A stretch of DNA of 64,000 nt from Candidatus Peribacteria bacterium (GTDB lineage: Bacteria; Patescibacteriota; Gracilibacteria; Peribacterales; Peribacteraceae): assembly GCA_043776335.1 (NCBI GenBank), contig JAYVRL010000006.1:33011-97010 (forward strand), read 5' to 3'. The notes beneath the pieces are model-generated. The model was not told where the DNA came from. It searched no databases and saw only the letters and a list, made by a program, of their open reading frames with translations. Position 1 is the first letter of the stretch, and each line of letters opens with the position of its first letter. Below are positions 9,748 through 51,640 of the stretch, in pieces. Both the position numbers and the translations under genes were made by a program.

Positions 9748-10344
9748 TCACTTCGCCGTCGCGCTCTTCGCCGTCGGATCGACGAACGAAATGTTTTTCA
9801 AAATGAATTCAACTTGGCTCGCCTCGCTGTCTTGGATGCTGAGGGGGAACGAACCGGTGAAGGTGTAACCGGTGTTGTCATGCACCGCGGAGAGCTGATA
9901 GTAGCGACGAACGGGCTGCTCGGGCGCCGGTCGGGCGCTGAACACGTGCACCGCGGTTTCTTTGCCGTCGATGAAGCTCACGATCTTGTCGATCAGTTTG
10001 TAATCAGGAAGCGCCGACACCGCGAGTACGTTGGAATTGTTGTAATCGGTCGTCGACAAATCCTGCGTGAGCGGCTCGCGCGTGACCGTGACGGTATCAA
10101 GCTGACCGGCGTGCGGCGTATCGAATTGGAAAGCGGCGACGGTCTCCTCCGGCACACCGAGCTGCGTCAATGTGTCCCTCGACAATACTTTCCATCCCTT
10201 GGGCAAACATGCGGCAAAGGAGCTGTTCCAGAACTGTTGATCGCACACGACTTTGCCTGCGGTGGAACTGCTGGAACCGCACGCGGTAAAAAGCGTGAGG
10301 AACGACAGAAGAATCGCTGATCGAAAACGCATCATGGAATACAT
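9748..10344 (-). CDS. lipoprotein, unknown function
   Basis: ORF 9748..10407 trimmed to ATG 10344. Signal plus lipobox MYSMMRFRSAILLSFLTLFTAC. Confidence 0.6.
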   Translation of the reverse strand: MYSMMRFRSAILLSFLTLFTACGSSSSTAGKVVCDQQFWNSSFAACLPKGWKVLSRDTLTQLGVPEETVAAFQFDTPHAGQLDTVTVTREPLTQDLSTTDYNNSNVLAVSALPDYKLIDKIVSFIDGKETAVHVFSARPAPEQPVRRYYQLSAVHDNTGYTFTGSFPLSIQDSEASQVEFILKNISFVDPTAKSATAK

Positions 10345-10481
10345 CCTACCACGGACGATTCCCGGATGAAGTTTCACGCGATGCTCGATCGAAGTTGGCA
10401 TTGACACTCAAGGGGAAATAGGAGGAATAGATCTATGGAAGAATGGCTTCTAAATGCTATTTTTGCTATAATAAAAAGAAT

Positions 10482-12950
10482 ATGAAAAACGCGACGTTCT
10501 CGGCGCTCTCCCTGCTCGCACTCACCCTGCAGCTGGCGACTCCGACGGCGGGTGCCACGGGCGCTTGCTCCGTCAGTGCTCTCGATACGGTTGCCGGCCT
10601 CGGCACGCAGGTTTCAGTGAACATGTGCGATGCGGGACTCGCGACGATCATCGAGATGCGCGGACCGGAGAGTGCAATCTATATCCAACACATCACTCTG
10701 GATGCGGGAGGTTCCGCGACGACGTTGATCCCTTCCAAAAATACGATCGCCGCAGGACGTTACGAATTCACGGTCGCAGGCAAAAGCGGCAGTTTCAATG
10801 TGCTGGCCGATCGCGCGGACGACGCGCACTCCACGCTGACCGTGACTCCGCAGATCATCGCAGCCGACGGTCAATCCTCGGCGACGGTCACCGCCGTACT
10901 GAGAGACCGTTACGACAATGCCGTATCGGGGCGGCCGCTCGCGCTCATCGCCAGCCGCCTCACGGACGAAGTCGAGGCACAATCGAAGCAAACCGATGAC
11001 AACGGCCGTTTCCTCTGGACCGTGCGTTCGGCGGAACGGGGCACCACAAGTCTCGTGGTCTACGACATCGCTGGTGCGAGGCAGATGAAGCTCCGTGTGA
11101 ATCTGTCGTTCGGCTCCAAAAGCTCGACACTCGGAGCATCGCTCACCGGATTCGAACAAGGCGGCACCTCACCGCAAAAGGCAATCGCTCCCAGTGCGTG
11201 GACCGCGGCTACCACGGACATCACCACGACGGATACGATGATCGATCACTATGAAGTTGCGCTGCCGCAGAACGCCACCGACGTGAAAGCGAACGAACTC
11301 TTCAGTCTGACGATTCGCGCGATGCGCGGAACGGAATTGATCCGAGGATATATCGGCACGCTCGTCGTGAAGTGCTCGGATACGGACGCGGATTTGCCGA
11401 AGAAAGGCACCGATCCGAAAAACCCGAAACTCGGGCACGTGGACATGCGCGGCGTCGATCAGGGCGAACGCAACGTGCCGCTGGCTTTCGTCTTGCGCGC
11501 CACGGGAACGCAGACCATCGAGTTCGCGGATCAAATGGATGCGACGATCACGGGGAAAATCACACTCAATGTCACGGGCGGCGACAGCGGCGGCACGGGG
11601 AAAATCACGATTCTCGATCCTCGAGACCGTTCCACGATCCGCAGCGGTCCCATCACGCTCCAGGGTCACGCTCCGAGTCTCGTGAATCTGAAAGTGAAAG
11701 GCGGATCCGATGTCGTCATGGGCGAAACGGATTCAGAAGGCGTCTTCCGCATCAACGTCCCGATCAATCCTCAAGACAAAGAAGTGACGCTCTTCGTCAC
11801 GAGCGAAAACGGCACGTACGAATCCGACCCCGTGCATATCATCATCGACACCGATCCTCCAGTGATCTCAACGATCACGATCGATCCCGCCGAAACGAAA
11901 GCGACTGATCAAGCGCAGCTCACCGTGAAATCCGAGCCCGCTCTCGGCGCCGTGACGGCATCGATGAACGGTCAAAACTTCACGCTCATAGAAGACCCCG
12001 CAAGCCCTGGGCAATATCAAGTGGCGCTCACTGCGCCCGCTCAAGAAGGCACCTATGACATCACCGTCACCGCTGCCGATCCGGTCGGCAACACGACGAC
12101 GATGCTCACGAAGTGGACGGTGAAAGCCAAAAGCATGCCGATCGTCCAGAATGTCACGGCCGAAGCGCAGGCCGCGACGATCGCGGTAAAATGGACGGCG
12201 ATCACGGCGGTGCCGGTAATCAACTATAAAATCTACATCTCGACGGAAGACGATCCGACGAATTATCTCTACGGCATCTCGACCGGCAAACCGGTGACAT
12301 CCGCCGTGATCAAAGATCTGCCTCTCGGCAAAACGTATCTGTTCTCTCTCACGGCGATCGGCGGAGAAAACATGGAGAGTCCGGAGAAAAGCATCCCCGC
12401 CAAAGCGGCCCCTCTCGGACTGCAAATCACCGTCATCCCCGGCCAAGACAGCTTGATGCTGGAGTGGATGCCGATGCCGAACCTCCCGCTCGATCACTAC
12501 GTGCTGCAATACGGCACCGAAGCGGGCGTGTATCCCGAGCAACGGACGGTAAACGGAGAAGCGAAGGCCACGGTGTTGCATGATCTCCTGAACGGCGTGA
12601 CCTACGAAGTGAAGCTGACTCCCGTGACGGTCACCGGCAAACCGATGCCCGAACTCGCCGCCATCGGCCACGGAACGGTCGGCGGTACTGGTTTCACCGC
12701 AGGCCCCGTTGACCCGGTGCCGACGGATATCCTCGGTCATCCCGGCGCACCGCTGCACAATCCGAATCCCCTTCCGAATCCCAATCTCGTGGACGTGCCG
12801 ACGAATTCCGGCAGCGGCCTTTCATCCATGATGCTCGGCTTCGTCGGCATGATCGCTCTCGTCGGCGGTCTCCTGTGGCGCCGCATGAAAATGGAACAAC
12901 GAAAGACGCGTGATTTCATGCTCATGATGCAGCAACGCTATCACTTGTGA
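10482..12950 (+). CDS. large cell-surface protein with Ig-like/fibronectin-III-like repeats and C-terminal membrane anchor
   Basis: ORF 10443..12950 trimmed to ATG 10482 (MKNATFSALSLLALTLQLATPTAGA signal). Repeated beta-rich T/V/S modules. The C-terminus is ...VPTNSGSG, then hydrophobic LSSMMLGFVGMIALVGGLLW, then RRMK. Confidence 0.75.
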   Translation: MKNATFSALSLLALTLQLATPTAGATGACSVSALDTVAGLGTQVSVNMCDAGLATIIEMRGPESAIYIQHITLDAGGSATTLIPSKNTIAAGRYEFTVAGKSGSFNVLADRADDAHSTLTVTPQIIAADGQSSATVTAVLRDRYDNAVSGRPLALIASRLTDEVEAQSKQTDDNGRFLWTVRSAERGTTSLVVYDIAGARQMKLRVNLSFGSKSSTLGASLTGFEQGGTSPQKAIAPSAWTAATTDITTTDTMIDHYEVALPQNATDVKANELFSLTIRAMRGTELIRGYIGTLVVKCSDTDADLPKKGTDPKNPKLGHVDMRGVDQGERNVPLAFVLRATGTQTIEFADQMDATITGKITLNVTGGDSGGTGKITILDPRDRSTIRSGPITLQGHAPSLVNLKVKGGSDVVMGETDSEGVFRINVPINPQDKEVTLFVTSENGTYESDPVHIIIDTDPPVISTITIDPAETKATDQAQLTVKSEPALGAVTASMNGQNFTLIEDPASPGQYQVALTAPAQEGTYDITVTAADPVGNTTTMLTKWTVKAKSMPIVQNVTAEAQAATIAVKWTAITAVPVINYKIYISTEDDPTNYLYGISTGKPVTSAVIKDLPLGKTYLFSLTAIGGENMESPEKSIPAKAAPLGLQITVIPGQDSLMLEWMPMPNLPLDHYVLQYGTEAGVYPEQRTVNGEAKATVLHDLLNGVTYEVKLTPVTVTGKPMPELAAIGHGTVGGTGFTAGPVDPVPTDILGHPGAPLHNPNPLPNPNLVDVPTNSGSGLSSMMLGFVGMIALVGGLLWRRMKMEQRKTRDFMLMMQQRYHL

Positions 12951-17176: not shown

Positions 17177-18628
17177 ATGGAAGAATCCCACCACCCGCAC
17201 CTCGTTCGATCGATGATCCTCGCAGTCTGCGGGCTGCTCCTCGCATTCCTCAGCGTCGTATTGGTCGTGGTCTACATCCGCACGGTCAGTCCCCGAACAC
17301 TGAGTTTGGCGTATCGCATCGACAATGAACGCGTGCTGTTCTTCGAACGCACGACGGATCCAGTGGCCTTCATTCGCGGCATCGCCGCCTACGCTCCGCT
17401 GATCGCCCCCGCTCCGCTTCCTTCGGTGAAAGCATTGCCTCAGGGAGTGTCATACGAATTCGCCTTGTTGTATCCGGTGCCCGGTCGCGCGCCGCAGTGG
17501 GCGATCTACGTACACACGAAAGAAAAGACGCACGTCACGATCGTCTCGGAGAACGATCCGCAGATCTTCCTGCCGATCAAAGAGATCAATCGATCCCTCG
17601 GACGTTCCTCCTTCTATAGAGGTCACAACGAAAGCTCTGCACCGAACGCCGTGTACGCGGATTTGAAAACGTTGCCGATCCAAGGAAGCGGCGCATTGGC
17701 GCTGGCGAAAGCCATCGTCACGCCGTATTCGCGCATCATGCTGACATGGAAAGGATCCGTCATGAATCTGATCGCCGAAAAAAAGACACCTGTCCTGTTC
17801 GCGGCGAACCGACCGTCGGTGTCTCTGCTGACGTTGCCAAACATGACGCTTCTGTCTCTCGCATCCAACGATCCGGCCGCGCTGCTCGCGTCACTGGACT
17901 CCGCTCTCGAACAACGAGACGCGAAGCTGGCCGACGGGCTGAAAGGCATCGTCCGGAACATGATCGACGAAGCCGCTCATCGCAGCGACCTCGCGGGCAT
18001 GACGACGGATCTCTTCTCCGAACCCGCCAAGGTTGCGATCGTCCGCGAAGGGAGCGCCATTCATACGCTCCTCATGGGACGCGCCCGCACTGCGAAAACA
18101 TTGAATACATGGCTTGAGGGCGTGCGTGCGATGACCACGCCGACGGAAATCCGCACCCAACACTTCTTCAAAGAAAACATCCGCACGGACGTGAAACCGG
18201 CCGAAACGGAAAAAATGAAAACAATACACGATTGGTCGACGGTGTCCGTCGGCGCATCGGGGAGCACCATGCACTTCTTCATCGCCGTGCATGGCGAACA
18301 ATTCGCCATCTCCGATGATCGCTCCCTGCTCGAAACCGGCATCGGACTCGTGCAGCAATCCGTGTCCCTCACCCCACCGCCCTCTCGGAGGACGTTCATC
18401 GGCAGCGTCGATCCCGCATGGGTGCTTTCCGTGGCGGACTCGATGGTGCCGTTTCTCGCAAACGACCTGCGATCACTCACCCACGCGCTCCTTGGAAAAA
18501 ACATCGCGCATCTGAGCTGGGTGGCGACGGACGGAGCTTCGGCGGCGACGTTCACGTGGTCTGCGTCTCCCCTGACGATGCCTTTGAGCACTTCCGATCT
18601 CCCGCCGAGAAAGACTGGAAAGCCGTGA
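17177..18628 (+). CDS. membrane-anchored hypothetical protein
   Basis: ORF 17144 (TTG)..18628 with preferred ATG at 17177. An extended -10 (TGcTATCAT, 17161-17169) ends 7 nt upstream. N-terminal TM MILAVCGLLLAFLSVVLVVVYI. Not SecD-like, as it has no C-terminal TM bundle. Confidence 0.6.
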   Translation: MEESHHPHLVRSMILAVCGLLLAFLSVVLVVVYIRTVSPRTLSLAYRIDNERVLFFERTTDPVAFIRGIAAYAPLIAPAPLPSVKALPQGVSYEFALLYPVPGRAPQWAIYVHTKEKTHVTIVSENDPQIFLPIKEINRSLGRSSFYRGHNESSAPNAVYADLKTLPIQGSGALALAKAIVTPYSRIMLTWKGSVMNLIAEKKTPVLFAANRPSVSLLTLPNMTLLSLASNDPAALLASLDSALEQRDAKLADGLKGIVRNMIDEAAHRSDLAGMTTDLFSEPAKVAIVREGSAIHTLLMGRARTAKTLNTWLEGVRAMTTPTEIRTQHFFKENIRTDVKPAETEKMKTIHDWSTVSVGASGSTMHFFIAVHGEQFAISDDRSLLETGIGLVQQSVSLTPPPSRRTFIGSVDPAWVLSVADSMVPFLANDLRSLTHALLGKNIAHLSWVATDGASAATFTWSASPLTMPLSTSDLPPRKTGKP

Positions 18629-47828: not shown

Positions 47829-48229
47829 TACGCCGGCATGAGAATGCCGAGATACGTGAAGAGCGCTCCTCCGAGCACCATCAAGAAACCGACGAACATC
47901 TGGATCGCGGGGGTGTCGAAAAAGTATTCCTCATACCGCTCGCGCATCTTCGAATACTTGGCGGGCCACCATGCCATGAACAAGCTCTTGGCGAGGACAA
48001 ACCACGCCACCGCGACGATCAAACCTTCCCCGTCGCCCGAGATCACCCATTGACGTCGGAGCGTGATGGCGGCGAGCATCGTAAACGCCATGCCGATGAT
48101 GCGCATCATGTTCTCGTCCTTCATGAACTTCTTGCGCCACGTGAGATGTTTCTCATCGCAAAAGACGAGCGGGAAGCCGAAGACGTAACAGAAGACGCCG
48201 ACGACGAGGGAAAAACCGGAGAGTGACAT
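47828..48229 (-). CDS. small polytopic membrane protein, unknown function
   Basis: ORF 47828..48262 starts at TTG in the track. ATG 48229 (MSLSGFSLVVGVF...) is preferred. Four hydrophobic helices. Confidence 0.5.
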   Translation of the reverse strand: MSLSGFSLVVGVFCYVFGFPLVFCDEKHLTWRKKFMKDENMMRIIGMAFTMLAAITLRRQWVISGDGEGLIVAVAWFVLAKSLFMAWWPAKYSKMRERYEEYFFDTPAIQMFVGFLMVLGGALFTYLGILMPA

Positions 48230-48415
48230 ACAGGGTTTCGGAAGAGCGTAAATTGTCGTCAATTGTCATCCACAAGAGAGAAATTGACAATTGACAATGA
48301 ACGATCGACAATTCGCCACGCTCATTCGCAGCAAACACTCTTCGGAGCATTTCGAAGCAATCCGCGCATGGAGCAAGGAAAACAGCTACACTATTTGCTC
48401 GGTCTTTCCATCTTC

Positions 48416-48490
48416 GGCCCCATCGTCTAATGGTTAGGACAGCGGGTTTTCAATCCGTTAACGGGAGTTCAATTCTCCCTGGGGCTGCCA
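48416..48490 (+). tRNA. tRNA-Glu (anticodon UUC), CCA encoded
   Basis: GGCCCCATCGTCTAATGGTTAGGACAGCGGGTTTTCAATCCGTTAACGGGAGTTCAATTCTCCCTGGGGCTGCCA. Folds as a cloverleaf with anticodon loop TTTTCAA. Confidence 0.9.
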
Positions 48491-49424
48491 CATTTACTTC
48501 CATAAAACTTTGTGTTGATCGATAATAATGTTCGGAAATGCGTTGTTTTTCTTTTTTACAAAAAAGAAGGAGGATATAAGTTAGCTGGAACGGGATTTTT
48601 CTATGGGACTCCCTTCACTGATGGTAGCGATCGAAACTTTGTAAATGTTGTTACTGCTAAACACGTCATTCAAGGAATTCAGAGTAAATCGGAGGATCAA
48701 AAAGTTTATTTTCGAATTAATGACAGTGATGGATTGAAGTGGTCTGCAATGGAAACGAGTAAGTGGCTGTTTCATCCTTCCGATGAATCGGTAGACGTTG
48801 CAGTTACTCTTTTTGAATATTGGACACCACAAATAGACCATTTAATGCTAAATGACTCTTCAGTCGTGACTCCTGAATTAGTTAAGAATGAAAGTATTGG
48901 ATTAGGCGATGAAATATATATTGCTGGTTTATTTCGTAACCACTACGGCTCGCTAAAAAATATCCCGATCATACGAATAGGAAATATTGCAGCAATGCGA
49001 GAAGAAAAGGTCAATTTTCGAGGGCAAGCTGTTGATGCTTATTTAATAGAAAGTAGATCAATCGGCGGATTAAGCGGCTCCTTAGTGTTTGTGAATATGG
49101 GTTTACATCGCCGAATAGATGGCACAATTAAACAATCTACGGGAGAGATATTACGTTGGTTGGGGCTTATATCGGGCCATTGGGATATCGATGAGGAATC
49201 TATTGATTCAACTACTGAAGATGAAGGTACGAAAAATATAAACATGGGTATAGCTGTTGTTGTACCGGTAGATCGTATTTTGGAAGTAATAAATCAGCCC
49301 TCGCTAGTTGCTGCCAGAGCTCTCGCCATGACTTAGTATTTTTGATTTTAATACTCTTAAAAACCTTGTAACAATGAACCATTGCCTCAAAAACACCTGT
49401 TTGAAAAAGCCGTGGGGCTGCCAC
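48480..49424 (+). mobile_element. AT-rich integrative-element remnant at the tRNA-Glu 3' end, bounded by a 12-nt direct repeat
   Basis: TGGGGCTGCCAC at 48480-48491 (tRNA 3' end) is repeated exactly at 49413-49424. The intervening DNA is clearly AT-rich relative to the flanks. No integrase is present. Confidence 0.5.
48512..49336 (+). CDS. cytoplasmic trypsin/chymotrypsin-fold serine peptidase (Trypsin_2-like)
   Basis: 274 aa with a GTG start. His-Asp-Ser order: VVTAKHVIQG, ESVDVAVTLF, SIGGLSGSLVF. No signal peptide. AT-rich codon usage unlike its neighbours. Confidence 0.6.
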   Translation: MLIDNNVRKCVVFLFYKKEGGYKLAGTGFFYGTPFTDGSDRNFVNVVTAKHVIQGIQSKSEDQKVYFRINDSDGLKWSAMETSKWLFHPSDESVDVAVTLFEYWTPQIDHLMLNDSSVVTPELVKNESIGLGDEIYIAGLFRNHYGSLKNIPIIRIGNIAAMREEKVNFRGQAVDAYLIESRSIGGLSGSLVFVNMGLHRRIDGTIKQSTGEILRWLGLISGHWDIDEESIDSTTEDEGTKNINMGIAVVVPVDRILEVINQPSLVAARALAMT

Positions 49425-49629
49425 TCTTAAATCTAAAAAAATATCGATCCGATGTGATTCCGTGTATCTCTCCATCAGAGCGAAATCTACGTCACATGAA
49501 ATAAGTCGCTACTCTTTGGGCAGAGGCTCATCGTCGAAAGGCTCTTCATCCGTCCACGTATCGCCGTACGCTTCGAGGTAATAATCGACCTTCACTTCTT
49601 CGAGCGGCGCATACGCCTTCGCCTGCGGA

Positions 49630-50826
49630 TCATATCGGAAGAGTCTCTCGCTGAGACGCAACGTGTACGGGACGCCTTTCGCCTGCAAGGCGCACTCGAC
49701 CCGTGTACGCCACGGGCATCACGACGTCGTGGGTGTGATCATGCTTGTGCAGGAACATCGCTGCGGGAAGATCGGGCGTGCGAACGGTGACGACTCTCTG
49801 TCCGACGCCGTCGTTTTTATCGAGCTCCGCGACGAACCCCGACGACCTTGCGAGCGCGAGCATGTGCTCTTGCAAGTACTCCGTCGTGCCTTCATTGCGA
49901 TTGTTGTCCATTTGCATGTCCATCTTTCCCGACGTCATGCGCGGATAAAACGTCGTGCCTTTGCGCGCATCAGCCATGACGAACGTGTGAAGCGCGGCAT
50001 TGCTGCGGTCGGGAAAATCGCAATAGCCGATCTCCTCGAGGAATGCCTGCGCATCGGGCATCGATTCCACGAACACTTCAAATGACGGCTCATCGGGGCG
50101 TTCTTTCAACCACTGACTGTACAAATCGTAGAGCTGCAACGTGGCGGGAACGGGGAACTCTTTGCCGGGACGACGTTTGGATTCAAGCACCGCCAGCGGA
50201 GTAGGACTTCCTTTCCGCGCGTACAAGGCGTCGGCAAGGAACGGACGAACGTCATCGGGGATCGGAAAATCCGAAAATCGCGCGACGGTTTCGGTAAGCC
50301 CATGGTCGCGTGAGGAATCCTGAAGGAACGATTGGTTGATCACATCCTGAAGGTATGCGGCGCATTGCGGCAGCGCCGAGACGTGCGTCACGGGGCGATG
50401 AGCCAAGAACCGCTCGATCAGCAGCGGAGTGCCGAGGCCATAGTGAAGAACAATCTCACGTTCTTCGGGCGTGACCGGAGGCACGGCCTCATCCAGCCAT
50501 GCGTTCGTTTCATTCAACGTCAGGTTCCTGAGTACGACGGTCTGAGGATGTAGATCGATCTTCTTAGCGATGAGCTCCGGATTTGAACCCGGAAGCGCGA
50601 GAAGAATCTTTTTCGATGCCGCTGCGACGGCTTGTTGAATTTTTTCCACATTGAAAAACAATGTGCCGATTTCGAACGCCGCGCCTTCAGACTCATTCGC
50701 AAGCACTCGATCGGCCACAAGGCTTTTACCCGAACCGCTGAGCCCTTGAAGGATCACCGCACCACAATCTTCTGCCAGAAGTTGCGTCAACAATTGTTCC
50801 GCCTCGCGTTGTGAAGAAGAAAGCAT
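49630..50826 (-). CDS. P-loop NTPase of unknown function (3' end apparently frameshifted; coding signal continues to 49510)
   Basis: ORF 49630..50943 trimmed to ATG 50826. TTGCAA-18-TAGAAT ends 7 nt upstream. Walker A motif ILQGLSGSGKS. See the frameshift finding. Confidence 0.6.
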   Translation of the reverse strand: MLSSSQREAEQLLTQLLAEDCGAVILQGLSGSGKSLVADRVLANESEGAAFEIGTLFFNVEKIQQAVAAASKKILLALPGSNPELIAKKIDLHPQTVVLRNLTLNETNAWLDEAVPPVTPEEREIVLHYGLGTPLLIERFLAHRPVTHVSALPQCAAYLQDVINQSFLQDSSRDHGLTETVARFSDFPIPDDVRPFLADALYARKGSPTPLAVLESKRRPGKEFPVPATLQLYDLYSQWLKERPDEPSFEVFVESMPDAQAFLEEIGYCDFPDRSNAALHTFVMADARKGTTFYPRMTSGKMDMQMDNNRNEGTTEYLQEHMLALARSSGFVAELDKNDGVGQRVVTVRTPDLPAAMFLHKHDHTHDVVMPVAYTGRVRLAGERRPVHVASQRETLPI

Positions 50827-50833
50827 GGAAGAT

Positions 50834-50863
50834 ATTCTATACGTCTTTTCATGATTTTTGCAA
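50834..50863 (-). promoter_or_regulatory. promoter of the P-loop NTPase gene (TTGCAA-18-TAGAAT), leaderless geometry
   Basis: Minus-strand TAGAAT is plus 50834-50839. The palindromic TTGCAA at 50858-50863 can also serve as -35 for the divergent plus-strand gene (TATACT at 50883-50888). Confidence 0.45.
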
Positions 50864-50896
50864 AGGATGAACGGAACTTTGTTATACTGCAAGTTC

Positions 50897-51640
50897 ATGC
50901 GCCTTTCATCCGTCACCGCCATCGGCCTTCTCTTCTGCAGCACACTTCTCGGCGGCTGCGGAACGAAAAAACCGTCGTTTCAGCCGCCTGTCGTCGTGTT
51001 CGATTCGCCGTCGGCGCAGAGTTCGACCGCGTCCGTCACGACGTCTTCGATGCGATCGTCCGAAGCGAAGGCTCCACCCGCGAGTGTCCTGATCAAAGTG
51101 CCATTCTCGCCGCAAGCGCCGAACGCCAACTGGGACGCGCTGCACGAAGAAGCCTGCGAAGAAATGTCCCTCATCATGGTGCGACACTACCTCGATGGCG
51201 TGCCGCTGAGTTCGGCGGACGCCGAAAAAGAAGTGCAGGCGATGATCGCATGGGAACACGCGAACGGCTACGGCGACGACGTGACGATCGCGAAGCTCGG
51301 TGACATCGCGAAAGCACTGTATGGATCGCACGTCCGCGTCCTCGAGAATGTCACGGCGGACGATCTGCGCCGCGAACTGGCACAAGGGCATCCCGTCATC
51401 ATCCCCGCCGCGGGACGCCTGCTCGGGAATCCGTACTTCAGCGGGGAAGGCCCGTGGTACCACATGCTCGTCGTGACCGGATACATCGAAAACGGATTCA
51501 TCACGAATGATCCCGGCACCAAGCGCGGCGAAAAATATCTGTACACGAAGGACGTCCTGCTTGCCGCCATTCACGATTGGACGGGCGTGAAAGAAGAAAT
51601 CACACAAGGCCAGAAGAAGGCGTTGGTGATCGAAAAATAA
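50897..51640 (+). CDS. lipoprotein with peptidase C39-like (C39_2/BtrH-like) domain
   Basis: ORF trimmed to ATG 50897. Lipobox LLFCSTLLGGC. VPFSPQAPNANWDALHEEACEEMSLIMV and HMLVVTGY...ITNDPG fit the Cys/His papain-like C39_2 pattern. Confidence 0.6.
   Translation: MRLSSVTAIGLLFCSTLLGGCGTKKPSFQPPVVVFDSPSAQSSTASVTTSSMRSSEAKAPPASVLIKVPFSPQAPNANWDALHEEACEEMSLIMVRHYLDGVPLSSADAEKEVQAMIAWEHANGYGDDVTIAKLGDIAKALYGSHVRVLENVTADDLRRELAQGHPVIIPAAGRLLGNPYFSGEGPWYHMLVVTGYIENGFITNDPGTKRGEKYLYTKDVLLAAIHDWTGVKEEITQGQKKALVIEK

Follow-up and report, generated by a model that had tools for sequence, protein, structure and literature searches.

We analysed a stretch of 64,000 nucleotides (nt) of a Candidatus Peribacteria genome (contig JAYVRL010000006.1, positions 33,011 to 97,010), hereafter the window, in which a 0.93-kb AT-rich segment (48491-49424) stands directly behind an intact tRNA-Glu gene. 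Its sole open reading frame (ORF) codes for a protease, and it holds no integration or transfer genes. The segment is a tRNA-integrated genomic islet with an attachment-site (att) footprint: the end of the tRNA is repeated at its far side, the empty site exists in a relative, and its composition deviates from that of the surroundings. We consider it likely that the islet is a recombinase-less, probably immobile derivative of a tRNA-Glu-specific large serine recombinase (LSR) element, and that its cargo is an anti-phage or abortive-infection protease.

A duplicated tRNA-Glu end and an empty site delimit the islet

The final 11 nt of the tRNA-Glu gene plus one base, TGGGGCTGCCAC, form an exact 12-mer with two copies in the window (48480-48491 and 49413-49424), and with the preceding bases the repeat extends to CC[C/G]TGGGGCTGCCAC, matching at 14/15 nt. 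No third copy was found in the 64 kb, with up to one mismatch allowed. Shuffled sequences gave an expectation of 0.11 matches, and two or more matches occurred in 0/100 shuffles. Furthermore, tRNA-Ala and tRNA-Cys, the controls from the window, have no comparable repeat of their 3' ends within 15 kb. A first-pass annotation, made by a model from the sequence alone, had reported this duplication and judged it unlikely by chance; both the coordinates and the exactness of the repeat were correct, and the shuffles and controls agree with that judgement. Rfam found nothing besides tRNA-Glu over 48100-49700, and all 75/75 nt of the tRNA are identical in five other metagenome or genome loci.

The same annotation had described an abrupt shift to AT-rich DNA continuing past the right repeat, and the computed profile showed that this shift is large. 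In 400-nt subwindows over 48500-49300 the GC content is 0.365-0.41, versus a mean of 0.555 (standard deviation 0.037) for the window, and the islet is essentially its only stretch lying under the mean minus 2.5 standard deviations. The GC content at third codon positions is 0.30 in the protease ORF versus 0.63-0.78 in the neighbouring genes. The AT-rich tract extends to about 49508, the stop codon of a convergent gene coding for a P-loop NTPase.

Then, we compared the locus with its counterparts in relatives (labelled here with L numbers). A search with ComEC, encoded upstream of tRNA-Glu, retrieved two Candidatus Peribacteria genomes (L010 and L011), and a scan with the 3' half of tRNA-Glu retrieved seven further metagenome loci. 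The gene order ComEC, methyltransferase, 144-aa membrane protein, tRNA-Glu is kept in L010, L011 and L014-L018, that is, in seven relatives representing six distinct contexts (L015 and L016 are copies). Downstream of the tRNA, the content differs in nearly every locus compared. With the upstream side conserved and the downstream side variable, tRNA-Glu thus marks a variable spot. The empty site, the search for which had been proposed as a check in the first-pass annotation, is present in L012, where about 12 nt separate an identical tRNA-Glu from the stop codon of an NTPase homologue with 48% amino acid (aa) identity to that of the window. This bears out the earlier reading of the repeat as an attL/attR-type footprint. 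The same interval of about 12 nt in L012 corresponds to 49425-49508 in the window, which is presumably either the original downstream flank (B') or older debris. No second copy of the core was found in the seven metagenome loci, within 8 kb or within the shorter contig sequence available downstream; conservation of the tRNA locus therefore does not account for the second copy.

Two of the relatives carry islets of their own. In L010 (L010:3539-4511), 972 nt after tRNA-Glu are closed by TGGGGCTGCCA and contain a lipoprotein-like ORF of 239 aa, with a GC content of 0.43 versus 0.52. In L011 (L011:12858-13314), 456 nt are closed by TTGGGCTGCCACATTC; their ORF codes for about 110 aa and includes a hydrophobic segment. 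Pfam gave no match to either ORF.

A family of LSR elements integrates at tRNA-Glu

In L015/L016, a 521-aa LSR ORF (Resolvase, Recombinase and zinc ribbon) lies directly after tRNA-Glu on the opposite strand, and its final 12 codons are the antisense of the tRNA. This recombinase has 61 homologues at E <= 1e-30, and the LSR gene ends inside or against a tRNA-Glu gene (UUC or CUC) in L015/L016, L023, L024, L025, L026 and L028. A repeat of the tRNA end encloses each of the three complete elements (Table 1), with a core, GGGCTGCCA, that is the tRNA 3' end. The backbone order is LSR, a 54-aa ORF, a RepB_primase/PriCT_1/AAA_25 protein and DUF4236, and the cargo lies at the end distal to the LSR. 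The 54-aa ORF, located upstream of the LSR gene, is a candidate directionality factor. This cargo comprises a type I restriction-modification system (HsdR/M/S) in L025 (L025:1-5400); a cyclic oligonucleotide-based antiphage signalling system (CBASS) pair (SMODS and patatin) with a Dam-type methylase and an SNase in L026 (L026:1-5400); and an Eco57I/TaqI_C-type (type IIG-like) methylase with a LexA-like repressor in L028 (L028:2274-4684). No conjugation genes were seen in these elements, which have a primase-type replication module instead.

Units lacking an LSR coexist with intact elements, as L024 shows. There, the element is followed in tandem by an LSR-less unit (L024:697-3948, reverse orientation) with a TrmB-like gene and two ORFs, and the core plus 88 identical nt after both copies make a 99-nt direct repeat.

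When the circular forms were reconstructed, the LSR ORF read via the core into the antisense of the P arm, ending in a conserved tail: …LAAPRLSQTGVFEAMVHWYKILKN… in L023, …FQTSVFEAMTHWYKVLKN… in L028 and …SPLLETMMDWYKVLKD… in L024. The excised form thus has a conserved extra tail of 22-33 aa (…VFEAM.HWYK.LK…; seen at L023:5370-5440 and 10001-11639), and in the integrated form a short tail from the tRNA antisense (AAPRGIEPRLQE*, AAPGRIELPLTD*) replaces it. On these reconstructions, the attP core lies inside the LSR ORF and integration is predicted to swap the C-terminal tail of the recombinase, which could act as an integration-dependent switch of its activity or stability. Dyad-symmetry scores of the reconstructed attP and attB gave no signal above shuffles, intact LSR elements included.

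Neither the LSR nor the P-arm/core pattern was found in a scan of viral contigs, and a full-text literature search found no paper linking Peregrinibacteria and serine recombinases. As a separate observation, an LSR homologue (53% identity) at L027:6471-10018 has no adjoining tRNA and lies beside an RVT_1 reverse transcriptase and a bAvd-like gene; this locus may be a diversity-generating retroelement.

The islet keeps the right end of an LSR element

As in the LSR family, the right end of the islet consists of a P arm followed by the core GGGCTGCCA. Over 60 nt, positions 49365-49424 share 91.7% identity with the right end of the L023 element (blastn E = 2e-18), although the tRNAs of the two hosts are only 79% identical. 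The right ends of the L028 element, of both L024 units and of the L010 islet also align with this stretch. Read in antisense, the arm in the window gives VAAPRLFQTGVFEAMVHCYK (AAPRLFQTGVFEAMVHCYK), which agrees with the L023 LSR tail AAPRLSQTGVFEAMVHWYK at 17/19 residues. Therefore, what the right arm of the islet preserves is the fossil 3' end of an LSR gene. The antisense arm of the L010 islet reads LAAPDPISTNTLLMEMLRWYEVMKGMKVAV*, a fossil of a similar kind; that of L011 is degenerate and contains a stop codon.

The left side is different: the flanks in the window, L010 and L011 show no homology to the P' arm, which four LSR elements share. The attR side of the islet is thus conserved, and the attL side keeps the core only. 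No LSR was found in the islet or elsewhere in the window. One tblastn match to the LSR, at 17348-17758, was dismissed (E 0.096, 24% identity, antisense within a 494-aa ORF, no ORF of at least 120 aa on its own strand).

Since the repeat is only 12 nt long and tRNA 3' ends are the usual targets of tyrosine integrases (PMC5704250), the locus might also be read as a chance repeat or as the remnant of a tyrosine-integrase island or prophage, with a gene that is merely AT-rich and native. We give this very little credence. Chance is excluded by the shuffle statistics, and the empty site exists in L012. The identical core bounds islets or elements at four other loci (L010, L011, L023 and L024), with a 9-nt version bounding the L028 element, and the homology of the 60-nt right end to an LSR element holds at the protein level too. 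Furthermore, no tyrosine integrase was found at any of the tRNA-Glu sites compared. The footprint of site-specific integration proposed in the first-pass annotation stands; the parent elements use an LSR and not the tyrosine integrase usual at tRNA sites.

Table 1. Features of the tRNA-Glu locus in the window, and complete LSR elements in relatives
Feature	Position	Strand	Size	Remarks
Promoter-like site	48284-48312	+		TTGACA-17-GACAAT, upstream of tRNA-Glu
tRNA-Glu	48416-48490	+		Anticodon UUC; intact; attachment target; ARAGORN and Rfam
Direct repeat, left copy (attL core)	48480-48491	+		Final 11 nt of tRNA-Glu plus one base
Spacer from core to start codon	48492-48511	+	20 nt	Not homologous to the P' arm of LSR elements
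Chymotrypsin-fold (PA clan) serine protease	48512-49336	+	274 aa	GTG start 21 nt after the tRNA
P arm of former attP / LSR tail fossil	49365-49412	-		(V)AAPRLFQTGVFEAMVHCYK
Direct repeat, right copy (attR core)	49413-49424	+		
AT-rich spacer from attR to stop codon of convergent gene	49425-49508		84 nt	
P-loop NTPase (AAA_16 / STAND-like, weak)	49509-50943	-		Host-like GC; outside the islet
L023 element			6.2 kb	Repeat CGTGGGGCTGCCA
L024 element			7.7 kb	Followed by LSR-less 3.2-kb unit in tandem
L028 element			11.1 kb	Repeat GGGCTGCCA

The cargo is a chymotrypsin-fold protease with links to defence

The first-pass annotation had singled out one convincing gene, a 274-aa protein with the His/Asp/Ser order of chymotrypsin-fold peptidases (motifs TAKHV, DVAV and GGLSGS) and no signal peptide, and further analysis agrees on each point. 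At E <= 1e-3 we found 1369 homologues, one of them 67% identical and all others at most 51%. In an alignment of 29 diverse homologues, His51 (TAKHV), Asp95 (VDVAV) and Ser188 (GLSGS) are invariant. The structure prediction that had been suggested as a check yielded an AlphaFold2 model (pLDDT 84.9, pTM 0.86) whose top Foldseek matches in the PDB are DegQ, DegS, MamO, thrombin and the 3C protease of hepatitis A virus (probability 1.00, TM 0.5-0.59); from this model we confidently predict a double beta-barrel chymotrypsin fold. In the model and in our reading of the sequence, the N-terminus contributes to the first beta-strands and is not preceded by a signal peptide; the protease is predicted to be cytoplasmic. 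No relative of the protease emerged among PDB sequences in a profile search, and NCBIfam gave no match. Against the closest homologue pN is 0.22 and pS 0.81, and the protease is therefore under purifying selection.

The earlier suggestion that the protein is reminiscent of defence effectors gained a concrete counterpart: it matches the profile of the PADLOC candidate PDC-S45 (E = 1.3e-15, profile positions 19-281 of 293), a role in defence being our inference. All 29/29 family members match PDC-S45, with a best E of 1.9e-25, 24/29 match LmuA and a few match RT-Protease_XI; the match of the window protease to LmuA involves only its N-terminal 107 residues (E = 9.6e-5). A role in defence or abortive infection is our best guess for what the protease may do.

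Homologues in six other genomes, bacterial and archaeal-looking, are solitary genes with a GC content below that of their flanks, and one adjoins an IS1595 transposase. No direct repeats of at least 12 nt flank the homologues in these six genomes. Therefore, the tRNA-Glu/LSR route is specific to the Peribacteria lineage and not to the gene family. The closest homologue (L001:1-1061), with a GC content of 0.41 versus 0.60 in its surroundings, follows an apparent C-terminus of elongation factor P with no tRNA, and thus the protease family also inserts elsewhere. In another case (L019:5952-11418, on a 1.8-Mb contig) a homologue with 45% identity is found between genes with AbiTii and TIR_2 domains, near several insertion sequence (IS) transposases, a neighbourhood that looks like a defence island.

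With regard to expression, the promoter-like site upstream of tRNA-Glu (Table 1) is the only sigma-70-like match on the plus strand ahead of the protease ORF, and no terminator-like site was found between the tRNA and the ORF. It is plausible that the protease is expressed by read-through from the tRNA promoter. We also observed a perfect 11-bp inverted repeat, GTCAATTGTCA / TGACAATTGAC (48258-48268 / 48285-48295), between the membrane-protein gene and tRNA-Glu, which overlaps the promoter-like hexamers and looks like an operator.

A decayed element or an active cassette

The first-pass annotation had noted the absence of an integrase or other mobility gene and had left the choice between a decayed island and a minimal cassette, which proved to be the correct frame. 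We favour the following course. An LSR element with the protease at its cargo end would have integrated at the 3' end of tRNA-Glu in Peribacteria/Peregrinibacteria, which belong to the candidate phyla radiation (CPR). After integration, the LSR gene would abut the tRNA on the opposite strand, and its last 22-33 codons would stay at the far end beside the second core, the end at which intact elements have their accessory cargo, often defence systems. A later loss of the LSR, the primase backbone and the P' arm would leave core, cargo, P arm and core. The likeliest cause would be a deletion with its left end at the core, possibly produced when the LSR aberrantly recombined attL with a pseudo-site inside the element. 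Judging from homology and context, the protease may work on its own in anti-phage defence or abortive infection, being triggered to cleave proteins of the host or the phage.

Without a P' half-site, the islet is unlikely to be excised by ordinary attL x attR recombination, and we favour a fixed remnant. Coherently, a fossil right end with an unrecognisable left arm favours a decayed over a still mobile islet. Excision of the 0.93-kb unit is predicted to join tRNA...TGGGGCTGCCAC to TCTTAAATC, with the circle reading ...GAAAAAGCCGTGGGGCTGCCACATTTACTTCC; the predicted empty-site junction is …CTCCCTGGGGCTGCCAC joined to TCTTAAATCT… and the circle junction …GAAAAAGCCGTGGGGCTGCCAC joined to ATTTACTTCC….

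Several observations weigh against the account of a decayed LSR element with a defence cargo. Non-homology begins right at the core in three independent islets (the window, L010 and L011); random deletion fails to predict this, and an aberrant LSR reaction at a pseudo-site would produce such a pattern. The search for an LSR covered 64 kb of the genome, and an LSR elsewhere is possible. The relative with the empty site is distant (NTPase 48% identical). No LSR element with a protease homologue was present among the retrieved loci, and the protease is thus assigned to such an element from its position alone. Trypsin_2 of Pfam, a search with which the first-pass annotation had proposed, scores below the gathering threshold (15.1 bits vs a cut-off of 27.6). 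By tblastn, the protease had no homologue among 50,697 phage records and one weak match among plasmids; for this reason the match of the protease to phrog_7688, a phage family of unknown function, reflects distant relatives only. Lastly, the searched literature held no anti-phage test of PDC-S45 or of the protease family; its sole mention of PDC-S45 was a PADLOC annotation in Sinorhizobium prophages, and the paper introducing embedded-gene candidates does not discuss it.

The main structural rival is that the islet is a still-active, non-autonomous cassette, resembling a cis-mobilizable element (CIME) or an integron cassette (an ORF with a recombination site of about 60 bp behind it). An LSR from another part of the genome or from an incoming element would capture and excise it at the tRNA-Glu core, and its expression would come from the tRNA promoter. 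This rival draws support from the three genomes that have a different single ORF after tRNA-Glu, on the tRNA strand and closed by the core, with non-homology starting exactly at the core in all three islets and the P arm conserved in 2/3 of them (the window and L010). The LSR-less 3.2-kb unit in tandem with the LSR element of L024, and the absence of a predicted promoter of the protease gene's own, point in the same direction. However, recombination by an LSR requires two half-sites, and no islet has kept the P' side; the P arm is more simply explained as a relic of the 3'-terminal part of the LSR gene, conserved at the protein level. In addition, each locus has one cassette and no arrays, the window has no LSR, and the L011 fossil is degenerate with a stop codon. 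We thus regard an active cassette as unlikely.

It is also rather improbable that the 3' end of tRNA-Glu in Peribacteria serves as an integron-like capture platform for promoterless single-gene cassettes, each made of an ORF, an arm of about 60 bp and the core. LSR elements would then deliver the cassettes or shed them via internal pseudo-site recombination, and the cassettes would stay at the tRNA, transcribed from its promoter and exchangeable in trans.

A further alternative accepts the structural account and questions the role of the cargo, which could be a selfish toxin or addiction module, an element protease that cleaves a regulator, or a host-adaptive protease unrelated to phages. Beyond the lack of experimental support for PDC-S45 in the searched literature and the match to phrog_7688, it fits with the many homologues that stand alone amid housekeeping genes, archaea-like contexts included, and with a protease that has no sensor or partner domain. 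Nevertheless, we consider this somewhat doubtful, as the protease family matches the PDC-S45, LmuA and RT-Protease_XI models, one homologue stands amid AbiTii, TIR and IS genes, the parent elements carry restriction-modification and CBASS in the equivalent position, and purifying selection on the protease was maintained after the decay of the element.

The convergent NTPase is a native neighbour

As the NTPase homologue abuts tRNA-Glu in L012, the NTPase is a native neighbour of the tRNA and not part of the islet. The first-pass annotation had described it as a convergent P-loop NTPase with native GC composition; the NTPase and its host-like GC are confirmed, but a +1 frameshift some 60 codons from the 3' end divides the gene into two frames (49630-50943 and 49509-49688). 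In the L012 homologue (L012:118-1540) the frameshift falls elsewhere, directly behind the Walker A motif. The two genes are either both decaying pseudogenes or both assembly errors. On the basis of the L012 alignment, the true start of the NTPase is probably Met39 (MLSSSQ…), which would abolish its apparent overlap with a divergent C39-like peptidase gene at 50858.

Whether the protease and the NTPase act together had been left open. The two genes are adjacent and convergent, and the NTPase has weak matches to AAA_16 and nSTAND3, as would suit a two-gene system in the style of IetAS. Such a pairing is highly improbable: at the empty site of L012 the NTPase stands without a protease, its GC is host-like and that of the protease foreign, the frameshifts fall at different positions in the window and in L012, and in other genomes no protease homologue has such a neighbour. 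Given an NTPase without protease at the empty site and the frameshift, the two genes are not a pair. Compared with IetAS, co-inheritance fails in both directions, with the NTPase lacking the protease in L012 and the protease lacking the NTPase in all other loci. IetS is a subtilase and not a trypsin-fold enzyme.

Comparison with known systems

CIMEs and decayed remnants of integrative and conjugative (ICE) or mobilizable (IME) elements at tRNA genes have been defined for streptococcal elements of the ICESt3 type (PMC5704250). Like them, the islet is bounded by attL/attR-type repeats at a tRNA 3' end and is devoid of integration and transfer genes; the tandem with an intact element in L024 is a suggestive further likeness. 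It differs in that its parents use an LSR and not a tyrosine integrase, with only the arm of the attR side recognisably kept, and in being a single gene within 0.93 kb in a CPR host, with parents that have a primase-type module and in which no conjugation genes were seen. In general, the islet has its place in a known class, that of remnants at tRNA genes which have decayed and lack an integrase (CIME-like, PMC5704250), and the unusual part is the parent family.

Serine-recombinase elements usually insert inside protein genes, which they disrupt, with very short repeats (2 bp in Tn4451) (PMC5704250). The parent elements resemble LSR elements and phages such as phiC31, Bxb1, Tn4451 and those of the SCCmec type in their Resolvase, Recombinase and zinc-ribbon architecture, in their site specificity and in their short flanking repeats. 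They differ from typical LSR elements in targeting the 3' end of tRNA-Glu, which is restored upon integration, in a core of 9-14 nt and in an attP inside the LSR ORF; the islet itself has no LSR.

The protease shares with HtrA, DegS and DegQ (PA clan) the fold, the His-Asp-Ser order and the motif contexts, but is only 11-16% identical to them and has neither a PDZ domain nor a signal peptide. With PDC-S45 it has in common a profile match over the full length and a solitary, horizontally mobile gene with a GC content lower than that of its hosts; the match is modest and points to a related family and not to a core member. Differently from Lamassu and the retron-type RT-Protease class XI systems, to whose protease effectors the cargo is related, the islet has no LmuB/SMC or reverse-transcriptase partner, its neighbours being the tRNA and the STAND-like NTPase.

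Temperate mycobacteriophages use integration-dependent gene switching, with attP within a coding gene. The LSR elements would likewise alter the C-terminus of a protein on integration through an attP within an ORF; here the affected gene is the recombinase itself, and the new tail is the antisense of the tRNA.

Implications

Mobile elements and the traffic of defence genes are poorly charted in CPR bacteria (Patescibacteria). The LSR family described here inserts at a tRNA 3' end and leaves the tRNA intact, a behaviour atypical of serine recombinases, and its attachment site appears to lie within the recombinase gene, the C-terminus of which would be rewritten on integration. It ferries restriction-modification, CBASS and probably protease-type defence cargo, and, as their tRNA target of about 60 bp is defined and conserved, such LSRs may interest builders of genome-integration tools. 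The protease family, with more than 1300 homologues in bacteria and archaea and no solved structure, is a tractable single-gene candidate for defence. The islet shows how defence-type cargo may be left as a single-gene fixture in a very small genome; if the tRNA-Glu end did act as a capture platform, CPR bacteria, with their reduced genomes, would have a compact slot in which defence genes can be exchanged.

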